Shown here piece after piece: positions 5,753 through 27,560 of a stretch of DNA of 64,000 bases. Under the pieces are notes generated by a model that was given only the letters and a program-made list of their open reading frames with translations, ran no database searches and was not told the origin of the DNA. The position numbers were made by a program, and so were the translations under genes. Numbering within the stretch: the first letter of the stretch is position 1; each line of letters begins with the position of its first letter. Source of the DNA: Escherichia phage cardinal; the sequence record PQ567651.1, one strand, 5' to 3'.

Positions 5753-6067
5753 TTAACTATATGATCCACATTGTTCGCAGTAGTGATCATCGTCGCCATC
5801 AGCTACCTGGCTGATAAAGTGATCTACTTTTGCTTTTAGGTTATTATAATTGTTTTCTACTTCCTTTAATCGCTCCTGATAGTAGCCCAGGGCTTTAATA
5901 TACGCCGCCTCTTCTGTTTTTTCACGCATGGCTAAATTCATGCCGCGCGTATCATCATACAGCCAAAAGCCATCGGTACATTCACTCATTGAAAGGGTAG
6001 GGCTTAACTCTTTATGATTAATTACCTTGCTCATAGTGTGCGCCTTATAGAATGATTGAAACAACAA
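5753..6067 (-). CDS. hypothetical protein with C-terminal cysteine cluster
   Basis: 104-aa ORF ending ...HYCEQCGSYS, possibly a small zinc-binding motif. Confidence 0.45.
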   Translation of the reverse strand: MLFQSFYKAHTMSKVINHKELSPTLSMSECTDGFWLYDDTRGMNLAMREKTEEAAYIKALGYYQERLKEVENNYNNLKAKVDHFISQVADGDDDHYCEQCGSYS

Positions 6068-6418
6068 TTGCTACAGTGATCCACACTGGAACGGCTAACA
6101 AAATAGCGTTAATCGTTCCAACCGTCAAGCTGTTTTCTTTCTTGATCATCGTTATCAACCTTTTATAAGTAATGTTATTGTGACGGTGGATTGTGGAGAT
6201 CCTCACCTTTGCCCGTCCTGCATTGCGCCCTCCTTTTGTTTATTGTCGTTGTGCCTCGCCCCCCTCGACAAGATGAATAATACGCTACCAGGTGAGGAAC
6301 GTCAACCCCTTTTTTAATCTTTTTTTCATTTCTTTTTTTTGCTTGCTATCTATAAAGGAAAGGGCTATTATCTTTCTACCACGCCAACCAGGGCGCACAT
6401 CAAAGAAAGGGCGATACC

Positions 6419-6685
6419 ATGACAAATACTACTTTACACCTCATGCACTCATTAGGCTGGCAAGGCGGCACGGTGCACCAGGTAGCAAGCGCAACGGGCT
6501 TAAAGGTTGAAACCGTTCTCAACCTGGGCGATCATAAGGTGGAAGAAATAGATCATTTTGATACGTTCGCAAATGGTTATCTATGGGCTTGCAGTGGCGG
6601 CGGGGAAAGCAAGATCCCACCAGGGGCGCGGGGTGATATATATTTTTGGTTAGGTGTCCTATCCTGGCAAGAAAACAAAAAATAA
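6419..6685 (+). CDS. hypothetical protein
   Basis: 88-aa ORF, first plus-strand gene after the divergent region. Confidence 0.4.
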   Translation: MTNTTLHLMHSLGWQGGTVHQVASATGLKVETVLNLGDHKVEEIDHFDTFANGYLWACSGGGESKIPPGARGDIYFWLGVLSWQENKK

Positions 6686-6835
6686 TATTGACAAGCCCAG
6701 GGATCGGGCTTATACTGTTTTACATACAGAAGAGGAAGCGCCACCCCCACGGCGTAAAGGCGGGGCTAACATACCAGGGCACTACTGGTTGGAAGGTTGA
6801 TCGCTGGTACAACGTATTTACAAAGGAGGTTAGCA

Positions 6836-7429
6836 ATGAAAAAAGTTTTTGGAGTAGGCATTAACGATAGTGCAAAGCCGATCAAAGGTTGTCGATTCTA
6901 TGCAACATGGCGCAACATGTTACAACGTTGTTATAGTGAATCATATCAGGACAAAAGGCCATCTTATAAAGGTTGTAGTGTTTGTGATGAATGGTTGACG
7001 TTTAGCACTTTTCGTGCTTGGATGGAACAGCAGGATCACCAGGGAAAACAATTAGATAAAGATATAATAACACCGGGTAATAAACTCTATTGTCCTGATC
7101 GTTGCGTATTTGTAACGCAAGAAATGAATAGTTTGTTAACAGTTACAAAGAGTAACAAAGGGGATCATCCTTTGGGTGTTTCATTTTTGAATCATAAACC
7201 ATTGCCGCGCCCTTATTTAGCAACAATACGTTATAATAACGTAGTGGAAAGATTAGGGTACTATGTAGATCCTTTATCCGCTCATTTGGCCTGGAATAGG
7301 CGCAAACGTGAAATAATCATAGAGATTATTAGTAATGAAACGGATTCAAGGATCGCCGCTGGCTTGGCTTTACGTGTTGACGCTCTCGATCTGGCTTATG
7401 AAAATAAAGCGGAAATAACTTGCTTATGA
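6836..7429 (+). CDS. putative homing-endonuclease-like / DNA-binding protein
   Basis: AGGAGG RBS then ATG at 6836; motif ATWRNMLQRCYSESY...YKGCSVCDEWLTFSTF, resembling the W..M..RC...Y.G..VC..W..F..F signature of phage HNH-associated proteins (assigned from memory). Confidence 0.4.
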   Translation: MKKVFGVGINDSAKPIKGCRFYATWRNMLQRCYSESYQDKRPSYKGCSVCDEWLTFSTFRAWMEQQDHQGKQLDKDIITPGNKLYCPDRCVFVTQEMNSLLTVTKSNKGDHPLGVSFLNHKPLPRPYLATIRYNNVVERLGYYVDPLSAHLAWNRRKREIIIEIISNETDSRIAAGLALRVDALDLAYENKAEITCL

Positions 7430-7432
7430 CGC

Positions 7433-7461
7433 TTGACAAGCGCCCGACAAGGGCGCATAAT
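7433..7461 (+). promoter_or_regulatory. sigma70-like promoter (TTGACA, 17-nt spacer, CATAAT)
   Basis: TTGACA at 7433-7438 and CATAAT at 7456-7461; fires into the non-coding repeat region. Confidence 0.45.
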
Positions 7462-7682
7462 CTCTTACATAGACAGGAACGCCTACCAATGGCGCTAAAC
7501 TTGGTGATGATAGCCGCAGGGCATCGACAGCTATAATCGCCGGTAGCTCGTCTAAAATAAATTTGTAAAGAAATGTAAAGATAAAAATAATCGCTTGCTT
7601 TTGTTGTTGGTTATGCTATTCTTATTGTATGGCGAGGGGACACGGGAGCGCGAGACAAACACCGCCCCTGCGCGTTATTTTC

Positions 7683-7800
7683 TAAATGAGAAAATTCTCA
7701 TTTGCTAATGATTCTCATTCTCTTACTGAGAATGATTATCACTTACATAATTAAATGATAATGATTCTCATTTACAAATGAGAATGATTATCATACGCAT
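7683..7800. promoter_or_regulatory. cluster of AT-rich palindromes resembling Fur boxes
   Basis: tgataatgattctcatt and aatgagaatgattatcat match the GATAATGATAATCATTATC Fur consensus at about 14-15 of 19 positions; 3-4 overlapping copies. Confidence 0.35.
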
Positions 7801-7810
7801 ACCTATAAAA

Positions 7811-8035
7811 ACACGAAATTGAACTTTTCATTTTTGATTTTTCTACGGAAAAAGGCAAAAAAACTTTAAATAAACTGGGGAATTTTTAAAAAATTGAAGT
7901 TTTCATTTTCAAAATCTGGATAGAAATACGTACAAAAACTTTAAATAATTTTGACCAAACTTGAACTTTTCATTTTCAAAATTTGTACCCAAAAATCTGT
8001 AAAAACTTTAAATAATTTTGTACTTTTTATAAAAA
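7811..8035. repeat. three tandem ~72-bp direct repeats (iteron-like)
   Basis: Each unit contains ttgaa(c/g)ttttcatttt(c/t)aaaat and aaaaactttaaataa; AT-rich, no ORF. Confidence 0.6.
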
Positions 8036-8171
8036 TGATTTTACTGTTCTGTTATAAGTAGTAGTTAAGAGATAGTATGCCTTTTAAAGATCAGATACCA
8101 TAGTCAAACAAACAAATTAAATACTTTATTAACAGAGTACAGAATAATATTTACTCTGGATATATTATTCA

Positions 8172-8210
8172 GAGGGTGGATTTCCGTACATGAAACCCAC
8201 ACCCCTTTTT
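8172..8210 (+). terminator. putative intrinsic terminator
   Basis: gggtggatttc / gaaacccac stem followed by ccccttttt; no plus-strand CDS upstream, so it may end a non-coding transcript. Confidence 0.4.
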
Positions 8211-8331
8211 ATAAAAATAAAAATTTTCAAAATATCAGTAAATATCAGATTGTGCTTTTAGATAAACAGCAAGGTCTGTATGCCATTTTCCTAAAAGATT
8301 TTGTCCTTTCCAACAGTCCTTATTTTCCACA

Positions 8332-8787
8332 TCACGATCCCACATTCCCATTTTTGATACCATAAATAGAATCATAAGGGCTTGCCTCTACGAACTCCTT
8401 ATCTGCGTAAGCGATAAGTTTATTTTTGAGATCTTCATTTTGTGTGTATTTAAGATACAAACCACGTTTGACAATCTTCTCCCGTAAAGAAGTCCAGGTA
8501 TCTTCATCATAATCTTTAACTAATCTGCCTAGACGTTTATAATATGCTTGTTCTTTTTCTCCTGTATATCTTAGATCTCCGGTTAAAATAGAAGATGCAA
8601 TATTGTAATCATAAAACAAACATGCTTTTCTCCACATCATATATTGTTCCACACAAGTAAATTCGACAGAACTTGTGATAGAATTATTATACTTGGGAGC
8701 TAAAGGTTCAATAAAAGATGATAGATACCAGTTGCTAAATTCATCTTTTGCCGAGAAAAAGAACACATACTTGTCAGTAATCCGCAT
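8332..8787 (-). CDS. NADAR (YbiA/DUF1768-like) domain protein, putative ADP-ribose N-glycosidase
   Basis: 151 aa; FFFS..DEFSN, CVEQYMMWRKA, YKRLGR, WTSLREKIVKRGLYLKYTQNEDLKNKL and SPYDSIYGIKNG align with the conserved blocks of E. coli YbiA. Confidence 0.65.
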   Translation of the reverse strand: MRITDKYVFFFSAKDEFSNWYLSSFIEPLAPKYNNSITSSVEFTCVEQYMMWRKACLFYDYNIASSILTGDLRYTGEKEQAYYKRLGRLVKDYDEDTWTSLREKIVKRGLYLKYTQNEDLKNKLIAYADKEFVEASPYDSIYGIKNGNVGS

Positions 8788-10185
8788 TTACACCTCCTTA
8801 TTGTATACTAATTTGCCACCATATTGTGTAACAATTTTTTGAAGATTTTCCAAATCAGAAACACTTACTGTTTCTGTATGACCATCTTTCAACTCTCTTG
8901 CCGTTAAAATACCAGTTTTTAATTTTTTCTTTATAGCTCTTTCAGCAGCCTTACATTGTTTCACTGTGCTAAAATCATATAAACAAATACGCTCCATAGG
9001 AAACATATTACAGCTATTTTGACGTTTTAATCGACTATCACTATTTTTAGCTATACCAAACTTAAGAGCAACTATAATATTATCATCCTTAACAATATTA
9101 ATATATAACTGCTGCTGACTATGACCAGCACACATAGGACAACCTCGACCGTGGCTTAATAAGGCATTAGCCCTCCCTGTCTGTTCCCCATGCACAAGAC
9201 AAAGATATTTAAACTTACCGTGACTTCTAGACGGTTTACCGATCCAACCTACCCAGACATACCCTTTCCCTTCTACTTCCTTTTTTACCCTGTAGGTAAT
9301 CTGATTTTCTGTATAGTGATAACTAGTTGCACAGCGGCAAGGGATACTTCCTTGTTTTAGGGGCCACCCTTTAGAGTAAAATTTACCATCGCAAACACCT
9401 GCTTGAACATATTCATCATGGGAGCAAACAGGACACTCAACCATCCATACTGCATCACGCTTGTTACGTTTCCCTGTATTGGTGAAGATAGTGCCTTCCT
9501 TAAATTTCCCTGTAGAAAAGAAATCTGCAATATGTTGATCGTCGGACATTGTTAGTGCCTTCCTTGTATTCTCATACCTACATAAAGGACAACCATAACC
9601 ACGTTTAAAATTGTTAATACTTGTAGTATCCCATTTATAACCACAGTGACACAACAAATCAAGTTTTGTTTTATGTCCTTTCCATTTTCCAACGTACCCT
9701 AACACCTGATACCCCTTCTTCTGTGCTATCTCTTCCAAGATCGGTAATTCTGTTTCCCATGCTAACGGTTTATTACTTGCACATGCCGGACAACCACGTC
9801 CATTCCTAAAATCAATAATGTTTGTGGTGTTCCACTCTCCATGTTTAGGGCAAATTATGCGAATTTTTGTTCGCACACCTCGCCACTCCTCGGCAAGACC
9901 TATAAAAGTAAACCCTCTTTCTTTAGCAATATCAACAAGGGAGATACATTCCTTTTCTTCTGTTACTTTTCTATGACCATTGCAATCGGAGCAACATTTA
10001 CCGCCTTTAGTTTTAAATACATTGATTATGGTACTTTCCCACTCTCCATGATCAGAGCAAGATAGCTTAAGCCTAGTCCTGCTACCTTTCCATTCACCAA
10101 CATAACCCAAGATTTGAATATTGTGATTTTTAGCAAGGGGTATTAATTCTTCTTTATATTGTTCCCATGATTTTAGTGCTACCAT
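8788..10185 (-). CDS. protein with five tandem zinc-ribbon-like repeats and a C-terminal T5orf172/GIY-YIG-like domain
   Basis: Five ~50-aa repeats of the form GY.G.WKG..T...L.C..HGEW......F..G.GC..C; C-terminus IVALKFGIAKNSDSRLKRQ...AERAIKKKL resembles the T5orf172 family. Confidence 0.5.
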   Translation of the reverse strand: MVALKSWEQYKEELIPLAKNHNIQILGYVGEWKGSRTRLKLSCSDHGEWESTIINVFKTKGGKCCSDCNGHRKVTEEKECISLVDIAKERGFTFIGLAEEWRGVRTKIRIICPKHGEWNTTNIIDFRNGRGCPACASNKPLAWETELPILEEIAQKKGYQVLGYVGKWKGHKTKLDLLCHCGYKWDTTSINNFKRGYGCPLCRYENTRKALTMSDDQHIADFFSTGKFKEGTIFTNTGKRNKRDAVWMVECPVCSHDEYVQAGVCDGKFYSKGWPLKQGSIPCRCATSYHYTENQITYRVKKEVEGKGYVWVGWIGKPSRSHGKFKYLCLVHGEQTGRANALLSHGRGCPMCAGHSQQQLYINIVKDDNIIVALKFGIAKNSDSRLKRQNSCNMFPMERICLYDFSTVKQCKAAERAIKKKLKTGILTARELKDGHTETVSVSDLENLQKIVTQYGGKLVYNKEV

Positions 10186-10259: not shown

Positions 10260-11294
10260 TTAAAACACACTTGCCAAAGTTGCACCATTGGTGATAGTTG
10301 GTTCCAGAACAATACGGAAAGAATCTTCTGGATCATCACTAAACACAACGATTTTACCGCCTGTAATAAGGTCTGCTTTCATTTTTGTCGCATTCAATGG
10401 AATTCGAGCATCTCCTTCATCATCAAAAACCACGTAAGAGCTATTAGCAAGGGCTTCTTTAGAGTCTGCATCACTTGGAGATGACAAGTACACGTCTAGT
10501 GTGCACGAACCACCTAAAAAGATTGCAGGTGTGAAGTTATGCCAACTAGATACCCAGCTAACTTTCTGAAGTTTTCCATTAATAACAACGCTGCTGATAT
10601 CCCATTTATTACCACCACCTAAAGAAACACCCATCATAGAGATGCATTCTTTAAAGGATAAATCAGGGTAGAAATTAAGTTCTTCTACTATACCTTGGAT
10701 CACATCAAAGGACAACTCTAAACTTACATCCCAAAGTCTTTGGAAATTATCAAAGTGTGCTTTGTTATCCAGGTTTTTATCTAAATAGTCAATCATAGTT
10801 TCTAGTGAGATTTTATCATAATTAAAATTATAAAACACACGACTAGGACGATTTAAAAAGAATTCAGAGATAAAACCACTGTTTTTAGTCAGAATAAACA
10901 GTTTATTACCACTGCCAGTACCATCTAACAAAGTGAGAAGTGCTTCTTGATCTTGTTTCTTCTCATACACTTTATCAAACTCGTCAAAAATAATCACTGC
11001 TTTGTCGGTGATCTTGCTAATAAGTTCAATGAAATTAGCATCGCTGTAGGCTTGAGTAACCATAATAGTTGGAATACCTTCTTCTACAAGGTCACGACTA
11101 ATGAGTTTGGCTAACATAGTTTTACCACTGCCCTTAGTTCCTGTCAGGAGCAAACCTGTATTTTTACCTTGTGCACTCCGGCGATGGAATGTACGAATAA
11201 CGTGATTTGCTCGTTTTTCTGTTTCACCATACAGAACATCCGGTACACCTGTTAGATTACCACGGCTTAAAAAAATAATTGCCAAGGGGATCAC
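10260..11294 (-). CDS. AAA-type P-loop ATPase; N-terminal ~30 codons lie in another frame (to ~11388)
   Basis: Walker A GTKGSGKT and Walker B IIFDEFDK; clear paralog of 26400..27560; N-terminal homology continues in a different frame up to an RBS-preceded ATG at 11388. Confidence 0.6.
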   Translation of the reverse strand: MIPLAIIFLSRGNLTGVPDVLYGETEKRANHVIRTFHRRSAQGKNTGLLLTGTKGSGKTMLAKLISRDLVEEGIPTIMVTQAYSDANFIELISKITDKAVIIFDEFDKVYEKKQDQEALLTLLDGTGSGNKLFILTKNSGFISEFFLNRPSRVFYNFNYDKISLETMIDYLDKNLDNKAHFDNFQRLWDVSLELSFDVIQGIVEELNFYPDLSFKECISMMGVSLGGGNKWDISSVVINGKLQKVSWVSSWHNFTPAIFLGGSCTLDVYLSSPSDADSKEALANSSYVVFDDEGDARIPLNATKMKADLITGGKIVVFSDDPEDSFRIVLEPTITNGATLASVF

Positions 11295-23832: not shown

Positions 23833-24690
23833 ATGACCCAAAAACTATATGAGGATGTAATCGGATTCCTCGAACAAACATCCGAAGAATTTACTCGTGA
23901 AAATGCAAACAAACCTGCAATGATTGTTAATACTCACCGAGATTTACTAGCAGGTATCCTAAGCAAGCACATGGCAATGACCCATATTTTACCTGAAGAT
24001 TTAGCAGAATGGCATAAAAGTGGGTATGGTCACATCCACGATTTAGATTATTTACTCTCACCTTTAACTAATTGTTGCCTGGTAAATTACCAAGATATGC
24101 TTGAGAACGGTTTCCGTATTGGTAATGCACATATTGAAAAACCAAAATCTATCGGTGTAGCGACTACTGTCCTAACTCAAATTATTCAAGCAGTAGCTTC
24201 TAGCCAATATGGTGGACAAACTTGTGCACATGTTGATACTGGGCTTAGTCAATACGTTAAAGCAAGTTTTAATAAAATATATGCCGATGTTGGCGATTAT
24301 GATATTGCTATGCGTATGGTAGATAAACAGGTCTATGATGCAATGCAAACTTTAATCTACCAGGTGAACACTCTAATGAGTGTAAATGGTCAGTCACCTT
24401 TTATAACAATTAGTTTAGGTTTGGATACCTCTGCTTTTGGTAGAATGATCACTAAAAACTACCTAATGGTGCACAAACAAGGATTGGGAAAAGATAGGGT
24501 AACTCCTGTGTTTCCTAAAGTTATCTTCTTCTTGGAAGATGGTGTTAACATGAAAGCTGGCGATCCAAACTATGATTTGAAGCAACTGGCAATGGAGTGT
24601 TGTGCTGAACGCATTTATCCTGATTTTATCTCTGTACCTTTAAACAAAGAAGTTACAGGATCTTCAGATGGTCGCGTCACAAGCATGGGT
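23833..24690 (+). CDS. nrdD: anaerobic ribonucleoside-triphosphate reductase, exon 1
   Basis: Aligns with E. coli NrdD from NENANK...RDLLAGI through GDPNYDLKQLAMEC to ...VTGS...MG; exon ends on U after the Gly codon. Confidence 0.85.
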
Positions 24691-24970
24691 AAACTATAAC
24701 TGCTCATGTAAAATCTGCCTAAACGGGGGAACTCTCAACGAGACAATCCCGTGCTAAACGTAACAGAACTCCCAACACAGAAGAAGGGGGGTACTATTAC
24801 GAAATGCCTAACGACTAGCTGTGATGAATGTAGCAGCGTAGGGTGTAAGCCTATGACACCCCAAATGGTAGACATGCTTTAAGCATGAAGATATAGTCTG
24901 ATCTGCATGGTGACATGCAGCAGCACGTAATGGTGCGGGAGTGGCCTTGCGAGCCACTTTGAACATAATG
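24691..24970 (+). mobile_element. group I self-splicing intron (ORF-less) in nrdD
   Basis: 280 nt separating two NrdD halves that sit in different frames; core element ctaaacgggggaactctc...gacaatcccgtgctaaa closely resembles the phage T4 td/nrd intron core; 5' exon ends in U and intron ends in G. Confidence 0.75.
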
Positions 24971-25912
24971 TGTAGAAGTTTCTTGTCATACTATGCAACA
25001 GAGCAAGGTGAAAAATATGATGGTCGTTTCAACTTAGGCGTAGTTTCTTTAAACTTACCTATCATTGCAGCAGAGTCCCGTGAAAAGGGCATCTTATTTA
25101 CTGAACTGTTGGAACAACATATGGAGATGGCGTATAAGGCACATATGCTACGTGTTAACCGTATTAGACATACCAAAGCATCTCAAAACCCTACATTGTT
25201 TATGGAAGGGGCTTTAGCTCGACTAGAAGCTAATGAAGAGATTGGTAAACTATTTGAAGGTGGTTATGCCTCTATTAGTATCGGTTATGTAGGTTTAGCA
25301 GAAGCTATGGAGATTTTATACCCAAATAACACCAATCCAAAAGCAATGGGTAAAAACATCCTTCAATATATGAAGGATATCTGTTGCACATTTAAAGAAC
25401 GTTCTGGTTTAGCTTTTAGTTTGTATGGAACACCAGCAGAATCCTTGTGCTATAAATTTGCCAAAGCGTTAAATGATCGCTATCCTGGCTCTATTGATCG
25501 TGACTATTTGACAAACTCTTTCCATCAACCTGTATGGATGCACACTACCCCGTTCCAAAAGTGGGATTATGAGGAAGGTTTTGCACAAATTAGTAATGGT
25601 GGGAACATAGGTTATGTAGAAACACCAAACCTTAAAAATAACTTGCAAGCACTGGAAACTCTTGTAGATTATGCCTACAATAAAATTCCTTATTTTGGCG
25701 TGAACCAACCTGTAGATCAGTGTTTCAAATGTGGTTTTCATGGTGAATTTAAGGCAACAGCTAAAGGCTTCGAGTGTCCAAGTTGTGGAAATCATGAAGA
25801 AGAATCCATATCTGTGATCAGAAGAGTGTCAGGATACCTTTCTGCTCCTAACTCTCGCCCTTATAATAAAGGTAAGATGCAAGAGGTACTAGAAAGGGAG
25901 AAACACTTTTGA
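24971..25912 (+). CDS. nrdD: anaerobic ribonucleoside-triphosphate reductase, exon 2
   Basis: Begins CRSFLS (E. coli MGCRSFLG), contains NLGVVSLNLP, the C..C...C..C zinc ribbon and glycyl-radical motif RRVSGYL. Confidence 0.85.
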   Translation, partial: CRSFLSYYATEQGEKYDGRFNLGVVSLNLPIIAAESREKGILFTELLEQHMEMAYKAHMLRVNRIRHTKASQNPTLFMEGALARLEANEEIGKLFEGGYASISIGYVGLAEAMEILYPNNTNPKAMGKNILQYMKDICCTFKERSGLAFSLYGTPAESLCYKFAKALNDRYPGSIDRDYLTNSFHQPVWMHTTPFQKWDYEEGFAQISNGGNIGYVETPNLKNNLQALETLVDYAYNKIPYFGVNQPVDQCFKCGFHGEFKATAKGFECPSCGNHEEESISVIRRVSGYLSAPNSRPYNKGKMQEVLEREKHF

Positions 25913-26399: not shown

Positions 26400-27560
26400 A
26401 TGTTTACAGTATTCGGCAATCAAATCTTTCTGCGTCAGAAATCTGGTACAGATATTGAAGAAATTCCAGCAGGAACTTTTGGTGTAGGTGTTACTCAAAG
26501 TGGTGAGTTCTTCCTGTATCCTAAAAACGATATGGAAGTCCCTTCAGTAACATACGGTGATACTGATGATAAATCAGAACGTATTATCAAAACGTTCCTT
26601 AGCCGCAAAGGTAAAAACACAGGTGTTCTCCTTGAAGGTACGAAAGGTAGCGGTAAAACTTTGCAAGCTAAAATGCTGTCTTCTGCTCTTCGTGAAATGG
26701 GTATTCCTACTATTTCTATCGGTAGTGCTTTTAATGGTGAAGGCTTTATCAATTTTATGTCTAAAATCACACAACCTGTGATGATTATGATCGATGAATT
26801 TGATAAACTGTATGCTGAAAAAGATGCACAAGATGGTTTGCTTACCCTGCTGGATGGTGTTGGTGGCTACGACAAACTGTTTGTATTGACTAAAAATGAT
26901 GGTTATGTATCAGAATTTTTGCGTAATCGTCCTAGCCGTATTTTCTACAGTTTTAGCTATAAGAAACTACCTAAAGCTACTATGGATGATTATCTGGCTA
27001 AAAATCTGGAGAACAAAGCCTTCTTACCAGACTTTGAAACGCTTTATAATCTCTCCGTGGATTTGAACTTTGATATTGTTCAGTCATTAGTAGAAGAACT
27101 TAACCGTTACCCTAATGACAAATTTTCTGATGCACTTGCACTAATGGGTATCAGTATTACTGAACACCGCTATGCTGCAAAAGAGGTTAAACTTCTGAAA
27201 GTTAACGGTGTAGATCGTACAGGAGATGTTTCGGCAGATACCGATATTGACGGTATGACAGCACAAGGTTTGTTTAGTGGTAATCGTTATGTTGTAGCTG
27301 TAGACCATAAACTAGGTGAAGAGCATCTTCCTGAAATGGAAGGGATCGTTACCGTAGAAGATAAAGATGAAGAAGGTGACTACTACTGGGGTGTAGACCG
27401 TATCTTGCTAACGTATGATGAAAAACACATCCGTACAATGGGTGGTGACGGTTATCACTTTATGTTCACCGATGATAAAGGTAACAACATTGAAGTTGTT
27501 ATTAAAAACAAAGAACGTAAAAACTACACAGAGTATGTGTTTGGTGGTCGTTCTTACTAA
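26400..27560 (+). CDS. AAA-type P-loop ATPase (paralog of 10260..11294)
   Basis: Walker A GTKGSGKT, Walker B MIMIDEFDK, LLTLLDG and LTKN blocks shared with the minus-strand paralog. Confidence 0.65.
   Translation: MFTVFGNQIFLRQKSGTDIEEIPAGTFGVGVTQSGEFFLYPKNDMEVPSVTYGDTDDKSERIIKTFLSRKGKNTGVLLEGTKGSGKTLQAKMLSSALREMGIPTISIGSAFNGEGFINFMSKITQPVMIMIDEFDKLYAEKDAQDGLLTLLDGVGGYDKLFVLTKNDGYVSEFLRNRPSRIFYSFSYKKLPKATMDDYLAKNLENKAFLPDFETLYNLSVDLNFDIVQSLVEELNRYPNDKFSDALALMGISITEHRYAAKEVKLLKVNGVDRTGDVSADTDIDGMTAQGLFSGNRYVVAVDHKLGEEHLPEMEGIVTVEDKDEEGDYYWGVDRILLTYDEKHIRTMGGDGYHFMFTDDKGNNIEVVIKNKERKNYTEYVFGGRSY

Follow-up and report, generated by a model that had tools for sequence, protein, structure and literature searches.

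The subject of this report is a non-coding array of three tandem direct repeats in a 64,000-nucleotide stretch of Escherichia phage cardinal (sequence record PQ567651.1), a phi92-like Escherichia coli myophage of the genus Justusliebigvirus, subfamily Stephanstirmvirinae. The whole stretch is called the window below, its numbering is used throughout, and in a Megablast search it was 97–99% identical to phages outra, inny, phi92 and others. A first-pass annotation had described three tandem repeats of ~72 bp in AT-rich DNA free of open reading frames (ORFs), lying between convergent genes and downstream of a strong promoter at 7433, and this description was confirmed: the repeats occupy 7816–8036 with spacings of 75 and 67 bp, A+T content is 79% in the array and 74.5% over the whole of 7811–8210, no ORF of at least 40 amino acids is present in 7430–8234, the flanks are an HNH ORF on the plus strand (6797–7429) and a NADAR gene on the minus strand, and the promoter is close to the sigma-70 consensus. 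The features of the locus are collected in Table 1. What is new is a conserved three-unit architecture, which resembles an origin-like iteron array of unusual unit size and is tentatively interpreted here as a site of nucleoprotein assembly, most likely a replication origin activated by transcription.

Table 1 Features of the repeat locus and its flanks in the 64-kb window
Feature	Position	Strand	Remarks
HNH homing-endonuclease cassette (phrog_953)	6797–7535	+	Within the small RNA gene, after GGAAGGTTGA
Sigma-70 promoter of the small RNA gene	7433–7461	+	TTGACA-17-CATAAT, 11/12; copy brought by the HNH cassette
Conserved unannotated small RNA gene	7468–7683	+	~215–225 nt; ends predicted
Four Fur-box-like 7-1-7 palindromes	7703–7793		At 7703, 7727, 7756 and 7779; for example, TGAGAATGATTATCA
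Repeat unit 1	7816–7890		Block A TTGAACTTTTCATTTTTGATTT, 7819–7840; block B AAAAACTTTAAATAA, 7859–7873
Repeat unit 2	7891–7957		Block A TTGAAGTTTTCATTTTCAAAAT, 7894–7915; block B, 7934–7948
Repeat unit 3	7958–8036		Block A, 7961–7982; block B, 8001–8015; ends in the 14-mer CTTTTTATAAAAAT, 8023–8036
Fast-evolving, very A+T-rich segment	8037–8171		Between array and hairpin; forms the helix-stability minimum together with unit 3
Hairpin with T-run	8172–8205 (T5 run, 8206–8210)	-	Intrinsic terminator-like; 25 nt past the NADAR stop
AAATATC short-repeat cluster	8230–8248		AAATATCAGT twice; here overlaps the 3' end of the NADAR reading frame
NADAR-domain gene	8235–8787	-	phi92 gp223 homologue; last gene of the convergent minus-strand operon

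The likeness among the three units is concentrated in two blocks per unit, A (TTGAACTTTTCATTTT(CAAAAT)) and B, and the spacers vary. The 15-mer of block B is identical in all three units, and its exact copies occur at 7859, 7934 and 8001 only; when up to two mismatches were allowed, AAAAACTTTAAATAA gave four matches in the window (the three units and one chance match) against 1.44 expected, a number reached by 5 of 100 shuffled sequences. The sequence TTGAACTTTTCATTTTCAAAAT with at most one mismatch was matched at 7894 and 7961 (0 expected), and a more diverged copy lies at 7819. A gapless repeat finder gave three in-register copies (7816–7894, 7891–7969 and 7958–8036) that are 66–72% identical, and Tandem Repeats Finder reported a period of 67 with 2.0 copies and 81% matches at 7890–8020. 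In every unit the AACTTT core of block A lies exactly 40 bp from that of block B, and the distance from a B block to the next A block is 35 bp and then 27 bp; the array can therefore be described as six direct blocks of 15–22 bp with successive spacings of 40/35/40/27/40 bp, grouped as three ~70-bp units. Elsewhere in the window no further blocks were found, and phage alia, whose complete genome of 148 kb was also searched, has the tandem units and block clusters at this locus only. A scan of IMG/VR with a 14-mer of block B returned only chance matches in A+T-rich contigs.

A "repeat_region" feature, its function not stated, has been placed at these repeats in the GenBank records of inny, alia and tuntematon, and that of inny is the same DNA as window 7894–8019. 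This existing annotation is purely descriptive, comprising two copies with neither a function nor a tie to the wider conserved module described below.

Nine Justusliebigvirus genomes were aligned over 7600–8330, and all nine carry three units. The array has 7 variable sites in 226 bp, and these are unevenly distributed, with one in the 120 bp of the blocks and six in the 106 bp of the spacers (one-sided Fisher p = 0.04); the blocks are thus selectively conserved relative to the spacers. The segment that follows the array evolves much faster, with 22 variable sites in 135 bp (p = 1e-5 versus the array), and the hairpin region beyond it has one variable site in 44 bp.

A syntenic gap is present throughout the sampled Stephanstirmvirinae and in Vequintavirinae. 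Syntenic relatives were searched for arrays like that of the first-pass annotation, and one was present in all of those examined, namely seven sampled genera of the two subfamilies and two unclassified Klebsiella-phage-like lineages. The number of tandem direct repeats at the syntenic site is exactly three in every one of these lineages (represented by the window and phi92, KP2025, tuntematon, IMG/VR contig L161, rV5, PVP-SE1, Seu621, pEp_SNUABM_01 and DU_PP_I). The two successive spacings are 75 + 67 bp in the window and phi92, 75 + 66 in Klebsiella phage KP2025, 74 + 65 in rV5, 67 + 75 in PVP-SE1, 67 + 74 in Seu621, 71 + 74 in pEp_SNUABM_01 and 63 + 78 in DU_PP_I; in tuntematon and contig L161 the middle unit is degenerate, and the outer units are 138 and 144 bp apart, respectively. 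The spacing between units ranges from 63 to 78 bp, and the distance from the first to the third unit is 138–145 bp in all lineages. In the seven lineages with two measurable spacings these are anticorrelated (r = −0.94, which is not a formal, independent-sample test, the lineages being related), and the standard deviation of their sum is 1.8 against ~5 for each spacing. The sequences of the units themselves belong to at least two largely unrelated families, with AAACTTTAAAT-type blocks in Stephanstirmvirinae and units of the form AAAAATTTTTTCG...GAAAAAATACG...CGATCGAGTACC in Vequintavirinae. The comparison points to a constrained overall geometry of the array and not to a constrained sequence.

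The array belongs, as one module, to a non-coding control region of ~1 kb common to the phi92-like and rV5-like phages. The order of modules is a strong promoter with a small RNA (sRNA) of ~225 nt, then the Fur-box-like palindromes, the three ~70-bp repeats, the A+T-rich variable segment and the terminator of the convergent operon; in Vequintavirinae, an extended −10 promoter is placed between the palindromes and the repeats. The array comes after the sRNA gene and the palindromes in all lineages sampled. AAATATC repeats mark the right edge of the region in most lineages, and 12-bp AAACCATTTYGA repeats are also found at this edge in Vequintavirinae. The three-unit architecture, its constant span, the sRNA and the Fur-like boxes were not described in the literature searched, and the array is not described in the rV5, CB7, PhiTE and T5 papers.

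The sRNA is encoded in 361 phage records of Stephanstirmvirinae and Vequintavirinae, is almost never annotated and has no match among Rfam families. It ends in a hairpin (7631–7674) with the invariant loop CGCGAGACAAACACC, followed by UUAUUUUCU, and its 5' end can form an H-type pseudoknot, with an invariant stem 1 (CGCC/GGCG). For stem 2, most phages have CCCC/GGGG, the cassette copy of the window has ACCAA/TTGGT and Erwinia phage pEp_SNUABM_01 has CCAA/TTGG, the latter being a double compensatory change. The native promoter copy lies at 6688–6716, and the native promoter with the 5' half of the gene at 6688–6800. The HNH cassette, which is absent from phi92, inny and alia, brings its own promoter and an alternative sRNA 5' half resembling the version of pEp_SNUABM_01, and an intact sRNA gene is therefore restored downstream of the insertion. 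The coding-free gap, ~800 bp in phi92, is longer in the window because of this insertion. The statement of the first-pass annotation that no plus-strand gene lies upstream of the repeats must accordingly be corrected, since both the HNH ORF and the promoter-driven sRNA gene are located there on the plus strand.

The four palindromes between the sRNA gene and the array resemble Fur boxes, three of them with one mismatch to the consensus TGATAATnATTATCA and one with two, all within 90 bp. Four of the six putative Fur-box matches of the window fall in this cluster, with 0.93 predicted per 64 kb. At least one Fur-like box was found in every lineage between the sRNA and the array, and elsewhere in the phage such boxes occur only around the genome end. 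Nucleotides 76–94 of the phi92 terminal repeat contain AATGATAATCATTATC, an exact match to consensus positions 4–19; Fur-like boxes are also present at nt 258–296 of this repeat, with more of them ~1 kb before it, and the alia genome has them at 91355, 91412 and 92350–92575. These boxes were not reported in the literature searched, and a search of the E. coli genome with the palindrome cluster gave no match at E ≤ 1, the sites being too short for such a test. Similarity to plasmid origins was considered and rejected, as only the Fur-like part matches, in Moraxella plasmids.

The physical properties of the DNA also set the array apart. It has the strongest 10–11-bp periodicity of A/T tracts among 2,534 sliding windows of the 64-kb sequence (a value of 1.97, where the background has a median of 0.17 and a maximum of 0.82), and it is the strongest within its own locus in eight of ten lineages. 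Within a unit, the A-tracts lie close to multiples of 10.5 bp, as read by eye from the sequence. Whether measured over 100, 200 or 400 bp, the minimum of helix stability in the window falls within 7731–8170, as would be looked for in an unwinding element, with the least stable 200-bp stretch starting at 7969, and the helix instability of the locus ranks second or third in the whole 148-kb genome. Phased A-tracts predict intrinsic bending and the low stability predicts easy melting.

According to the interpretation preferred here, the three units would constitute a single-copy, cis-acting DNA array with six recognition blocks in A+T-rich DNA that is bent and easy to melt, and would be the assembly site of a protein complex. 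The repeats would act as long composite iterons of a replication origin, the least stable DNA at about 7969–8170 (unit 3 into the variable segment) would serve as the unwinding element, and transcription entering from the left may activate or prime initiation, the palindromes gating this transcription. Transcription toward the array is plausible, both from the 11/12 sRNA promoter and from the extended −10 promoters of Vequintavirinae. These features of the sequence are the basis on which binding of a protein, activity as an origin and a possible part of transcription or Fur are inferred. An array acting at the DNA level is favored because the blocks are conserved and the spacers free, because number and span are fixed despite sequence turnover, and because the element is a single copy in bent, meltable DNA with no RNA fold. 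Among known elements an origin fits best because of the composite iterons, the adjacent unwinding region and the upstream transcription.

Iteron origins contain several direct initiator sites of 17–22 bp, usually about two helical turns apart, and iterons, an unwinding region and upstream transcription are found in the origins of lambda, T7 and T4. With iteron origins (lambda ori, P1 oriR, and P4 ori/crr with its 120-bp direct repeats) the array shares direct short sites in bent DNA, an adjoining stretch of least stable DNA, single-copy occurrence and lineage-specific sites with a conserved layout. It differs from them in its ~70-bp units with two subsites each and in subsite spacings of 27–40 bp instead of ~22 bp, as well as in the features of initiation listed below. 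The primary origin of T7 combines the tandem promoters 1.1A/1.1B with an A+T-rich region, and oriF and oriG of T4 each combine a promoter with an unwinding element. The locus is similar in that a promoter reads into an A+T-rich, meltable non-coding stretch and a protein-less transcription unit lies upstream; however, the promoter directly upstream is strong only in Vequintavirinae, and the repeats are not promoters.

The candidate origin of the first-pass annotation stays the leading reading because the repeats exist, are conserved and occur once, their layout is like that of iterons, and the least stable DNA lies next to them. It is nevertheless held at distinctly less than an even chance, since it has the support of neither an initiator nor a host-factor site nor a skew signal. 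The following results weigh against it. No initiator candidate adjoins the array: the protein of the small plus-strand gene gp224 (6419–6685), to the left of the gene-free gap, gave a confident model (predicted local distance difference test score, pLDDT, 94) with a conserved N-terminus of helix-turn-helix appearance and no fold match, and the other neighbors of the array are the NADAR protein and homing endonucleases. The AAA ATPase gp221 was rejected as an initiator, its best matches being to the classical p97/Cdc48/Vps4 type, with scores for Hda, DnaC and Orc far below cut-offs, and AAA proteins related to it are widespread in phages. Across the ten loci scanned, no DnaA or IHF consensus was conserved; a single TTTTCCACA was seen inside the NADAR gene of the window and a single TTATCCACA in EspYZU14. 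GATC is not conserved either, occurring once per unit in PVP-SE1 and EspYZU14, within units of DU_PP_I, Seu621 and partly rV5, and in none of the units of pEp_SNUABM_01 or the window. Cumulative GC skew, proposed as a check in the first-pass annotation, tracked gene orientation and reached its extreme, a minimum, at ~13 kb and not at the locus. With units of ~70 bp and subsites separated by 27–40 bp, the array is not made of classical iterons, the A-tract periodicity may partly be a harmonic of the ~70-bp repetition and does not peak at the array in two lineages (tuntematon and DU_PP_I), and the anticorrelated spacings come from related lineages, as said. In the literature searched, no experiments on the function of the array were reported. 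A DNA helicase gene is located ~10 kb away, which says little.

The main rival, which we consider possible though rather unlikely, is that the repeats are transcribed from the plus strand into an unstructured A/U-rich RNA, its promoter controlled by the Fur-like palindromes, that might, for example, titrate a host RNA-binding protein, ribonuclease or sRNA as a sponge or decoy. Such a transcript would end at or before the hairpin at 8172–8210, and it is compatible with an origin if transcription activates the origin. In its favor, three Vequintavirinae genera have kept a sigma-70 promoter with an extended −10 element between the palindrome and the first repeat (TTGACA-18-TGaGAAAAT in PVP-SE1, 10/12; TGGACG-17-TGtCATAAT in pEp_SNUABM_01; TTGACT...TGaGATACT in Seu621), the scores of these promoters being 10/12 and 9/12. 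The corresponding sequence of the window, TTCTCA-18-TATCAT at 7765–7794 on the plus strand, lies within the last Fur-like box, and this weak TATCAT −10 in the last palindrome is also found in tuntematon, but with 9/12 the window promoter is poor. A possible plus-sense hairpin at 8133–8158 gives a weak hint of transcription in this direction, since its two A-to-G changes leave G-U pairs intact only if the RNA is plus-sense.

The hairpin that follows the variable segment bears directly on this rival. The first-pass annotation had read it as a terminator on the plus strand; the stem-loop and its T-run exist, but the assignment to the plus strand is weakened, the stem being much stronger in the minus sense. 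As plus-sense RNA it folds weakly (−11.8 kcal/mol, z −2.2) with a perfect U5 run, whereas as minus-sense RNA it forms a 14-pair stem (−19.9 kcal/mol, z −3.7, 0 of 200 shuffles as good) with a poor U-run; the difference arises because several pairs are G-U only in the minus sense. A minus-sense hairpin at the same position is significant throughout the relatives (z −5.2 in tuntematon, −5.1 in phiWec181, −3.1 in L161 and −3.0 in KP2025). The plus-sense form is significant among them only in Phapecoctavirus (z −2.5 in tuntematon and −5.4 in phiWec181), and in the two Klebsiella-type relatives, KP2025 and L161, it folds no better than shuffles. The hairpin is thus best read as, first of all, the terminator of the convergent minus-strand operon, perhaps bidirectional here owing to the T5 run. 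That run is a point for a plus-strand RNA. The mainly minus-sense hairpin is poor evidence for a plus-strand RNA gene and would be a poor plus-sense terminator, without significance in the KP2025/L161 type.

Folding and family searches did not support the structured RNA suggested in the first-pass annotation. The covariance-model scan proposed there found no Rfam match at the gathering score or at E ≤ 5, the folding z-scores of the repeats versus shuffles were +0.23 (plus) and +0.10 (minus), that of 8030–8220 was −1.1, and no tRNA or transfer-messenger RNA was detected. A fold signal was absent on either strand in both the window and pEp_SNUABM_01; the repeats of PVP-SE1 reached z −3.9 through pairing between units and those of pEp_SNUABM_01 gave 0, so there is no consistent structure. 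In favor of the unstructured RNA, there is a precedent for repeat RNA in an rV5-like phage, the pseudo-ToxI of PhiTE (PMC3475682). With the type III antitoxin RNAs and this PhiTE locus the array shares a tandem-repeat layout in non-coding DNA, found in PhiTE within an rV5-like phage, and possible transcription; however, repeats of the ToxI type are 34–45 nt long, near-identical and fold into pseudoknots, whereas the units of the array are 67–75 bp long (twice the length), imperfect (66–72% identical) and show no fold. Synteny with the PhiTE locus was rejected because that locus lies elsewhere, beside tRNA genes and the terminase gene, and a type III antitoxin was rejected because unit length and identity are unlike and no plus-strand gene follows the array. 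The span of 138–145 bp and the phased A-tracts are also more natural for DNA geometry than for an RNA.

It is improbable that the array is regulatory DNA in the form of tandem promoters or a bent-DNA enhancer for the neighboring early transcription units. Curved A-tract DNA is common near strong promoters, promoter-like matches in 5800–9000 number 20 against a shuffle expectation of 10.3 (about twofold), and divergent early promoters lie 1.5 kb to the left. Against this, the only sigma-70 match in the array (9/12, at 7921–7949) is not conserved between units, the minus-strand TTTACA-18-CAAAAT matches of tuntematon are absent from the window, no gene lies downstream in either direction, and relative to the sRNA promoter the array has a downstream rather than an upstream position. 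The first of these grounds also led to the rejection of sigma-70 promoters within units, and a general phage promoter motif was rejected because neither the window nor the whole genome has further copies of the blocks, which hence do not represent a phage promoter class.

A comparison with phage T5 gave a further, quite unlikely alternative, in which the non-coding module is a host-factor docking site or DNA-entry checkpoint like the T5 injection-stop (iss) region, at the inner border of a first-entering segment of ~11.5 kb. In blastn the Fur-like part matched the untranslated terminal-repeat region of T5-like phages with 70–83% identity over 73–131 bp, and this region, with its dense cluster of palindromes, holds the injection-stop locus; the phi92 terminal repeat itself has Fur-like palindromes too. 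The first-step-transfer DNA of T5 is 7.9% of the genome (bioRxiv 10.1101/866236), and the phi92 locus is 7.7–8.2% of the genome length (11.4–12.2 kb) from the right end, the segment in between being filled with small early-type genes transcribed away from the locus. The locus and T5 Repeat Region 3 thus have in common a large conserved untranslated region with dense repeats and palindromes at ~8% of the genome from one end, but this match of position may be a coincidence, and two-step injection in these phages was not reported in the literature searched. Moreover, in the T5 region DnaA boxes are paired within inverted repeats, with a fixed spacer of 52 bp (bioRxiv 10.1101/866236), and there are 23-bp tandem repeats and TGTGCAAATCCGAC repeats but not three ~70-bp units; at the present locus no conserved DnaA boxes and no paired boxes of the T5 type were found. 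The T5 region also lies inside a terminal repeat of ~10 kb, whereas the phi92 repeat is 343 bp long, and the preprint on the injection stop (bioRxiv 10.1101/866236) makes no mention of Fur. In the T5-like Escherichia phage Gostya9, the same Fur-like palindromes are present at 1340–1600 as 23-bp tandem repeats, together with a GGCGAG...CCCTGCGC hairpin that resembles the terminator stem of the sRNA.

A broader speculation, also of low probability, is that sRNA, palindromes and array form an ancient control unit of rV5- and phi92-like phages that would tie DNA entry or the start of replication to the iron status of the host via Fur, with the constant ~141 bp of the array as the wrapping surface for a new nucleoprotein complex, and that would be functionally related to the T5 injection-stop region, where the palindromes and the ~8% position recur.

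Functionless products of slippage or duplication in a spacer between convergent operons are a still less likely source of the repeats: A+T-rich intergenic DNA readily yields repeats and the adjacent 135 bp evolve fast, but the copy number is three in all relatives examined, the blocks are conserved where the spacers vary, and architecture and span are kept across two subfamilies despite differing sequences. Repeats in A+T-rich non-coding DNA can mark packaging (pac) sites and some deposited records begin near the locus, but these records are circular assemblies with arbitrary or repeat-induced break points and the phi92 record has its 343-bp direct terminal repeats at the record ends, 11.4–12.2 kb away, so the packaging or terminus-related site offered in the first-pass annotation can be dismissed as most improbable. 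Whatever probability remains is reserved for functions other than those discussed above.

The phi92 and rV5 groups supply some of the most often isolated phages that are candidates for therapy against E. coli, Klebsiella and Salmonella. On their replication origins the literature searched offers only an inconclusive skew analysis of rV5, and it contains no description of their early regulatory circuitry. The ~1-kb stretch that nearly all of the 361 records leave blank or fill with spurious ORFs constitutes a conserved control region of modular build, with an sRNA that has a covarying pseudoknot, Fur-box-like putative operators and a three-unit array of predicted bent DNA with constant span. 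Should the array prove to be an origin, it would offer a starting point for engineering these phages and studying their replication; binding of Fur to the palindromes, if it occurs, would connect phage development with the iron status of the host; and the palindromes shared with the T5 injection-stop region provide a new testable lead on an old problem.

Several minor observations concern the remaining sequences of the locus. The 14-mer CTTTTTATAAAAAT at the end of unit 3, which contains the palindrome TTTTTATAAAAA, recurs at 8205–8218, and the two copies bracket a fast-evolving segment of 168 bp that includes the terminator hairpin; they could mark an old insertion or a recombination joint. 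The motif TTTGAGATAA recurs beyond the array in most lineages: in Phapecoctavirus, Seunavirus, Henunavirus and Mydovirus one to three copies of TTTGAGATAA(G/C) follow the repeats, and the window has a degenerate copy at 8067–8077. The NADAR (YbiA-like) gene is split in the window into ORFs 8235–8375 and 8332–8787 by one extra T in a T-run near 8351–8355, in comparison with phi92 and IMG/VR contig L181, which reflects either a sequencing error or a pseudogene. Beyond it on the minus strand are genes for a CapR/T5orf172 endonuclease and an AAA ATPase.

Farther from the array, a group I intron (Rfam RF00028, 72 bits) at 24645–24920 interrupts the anaerobic ribonucleotide reductase gene nrdD, the pieces of which are ORFs 23833–24699 and 24941–25912. 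The window also encodes two paralogous AAA ATPases of phrog_2376, at 10260–11294 on the minus strand and 26400–27560 on the plus strand. The ORF of the former is listed from a GTG codon with 344 amino acids against 375 in close homologues, and its true start is probably located further upstream.

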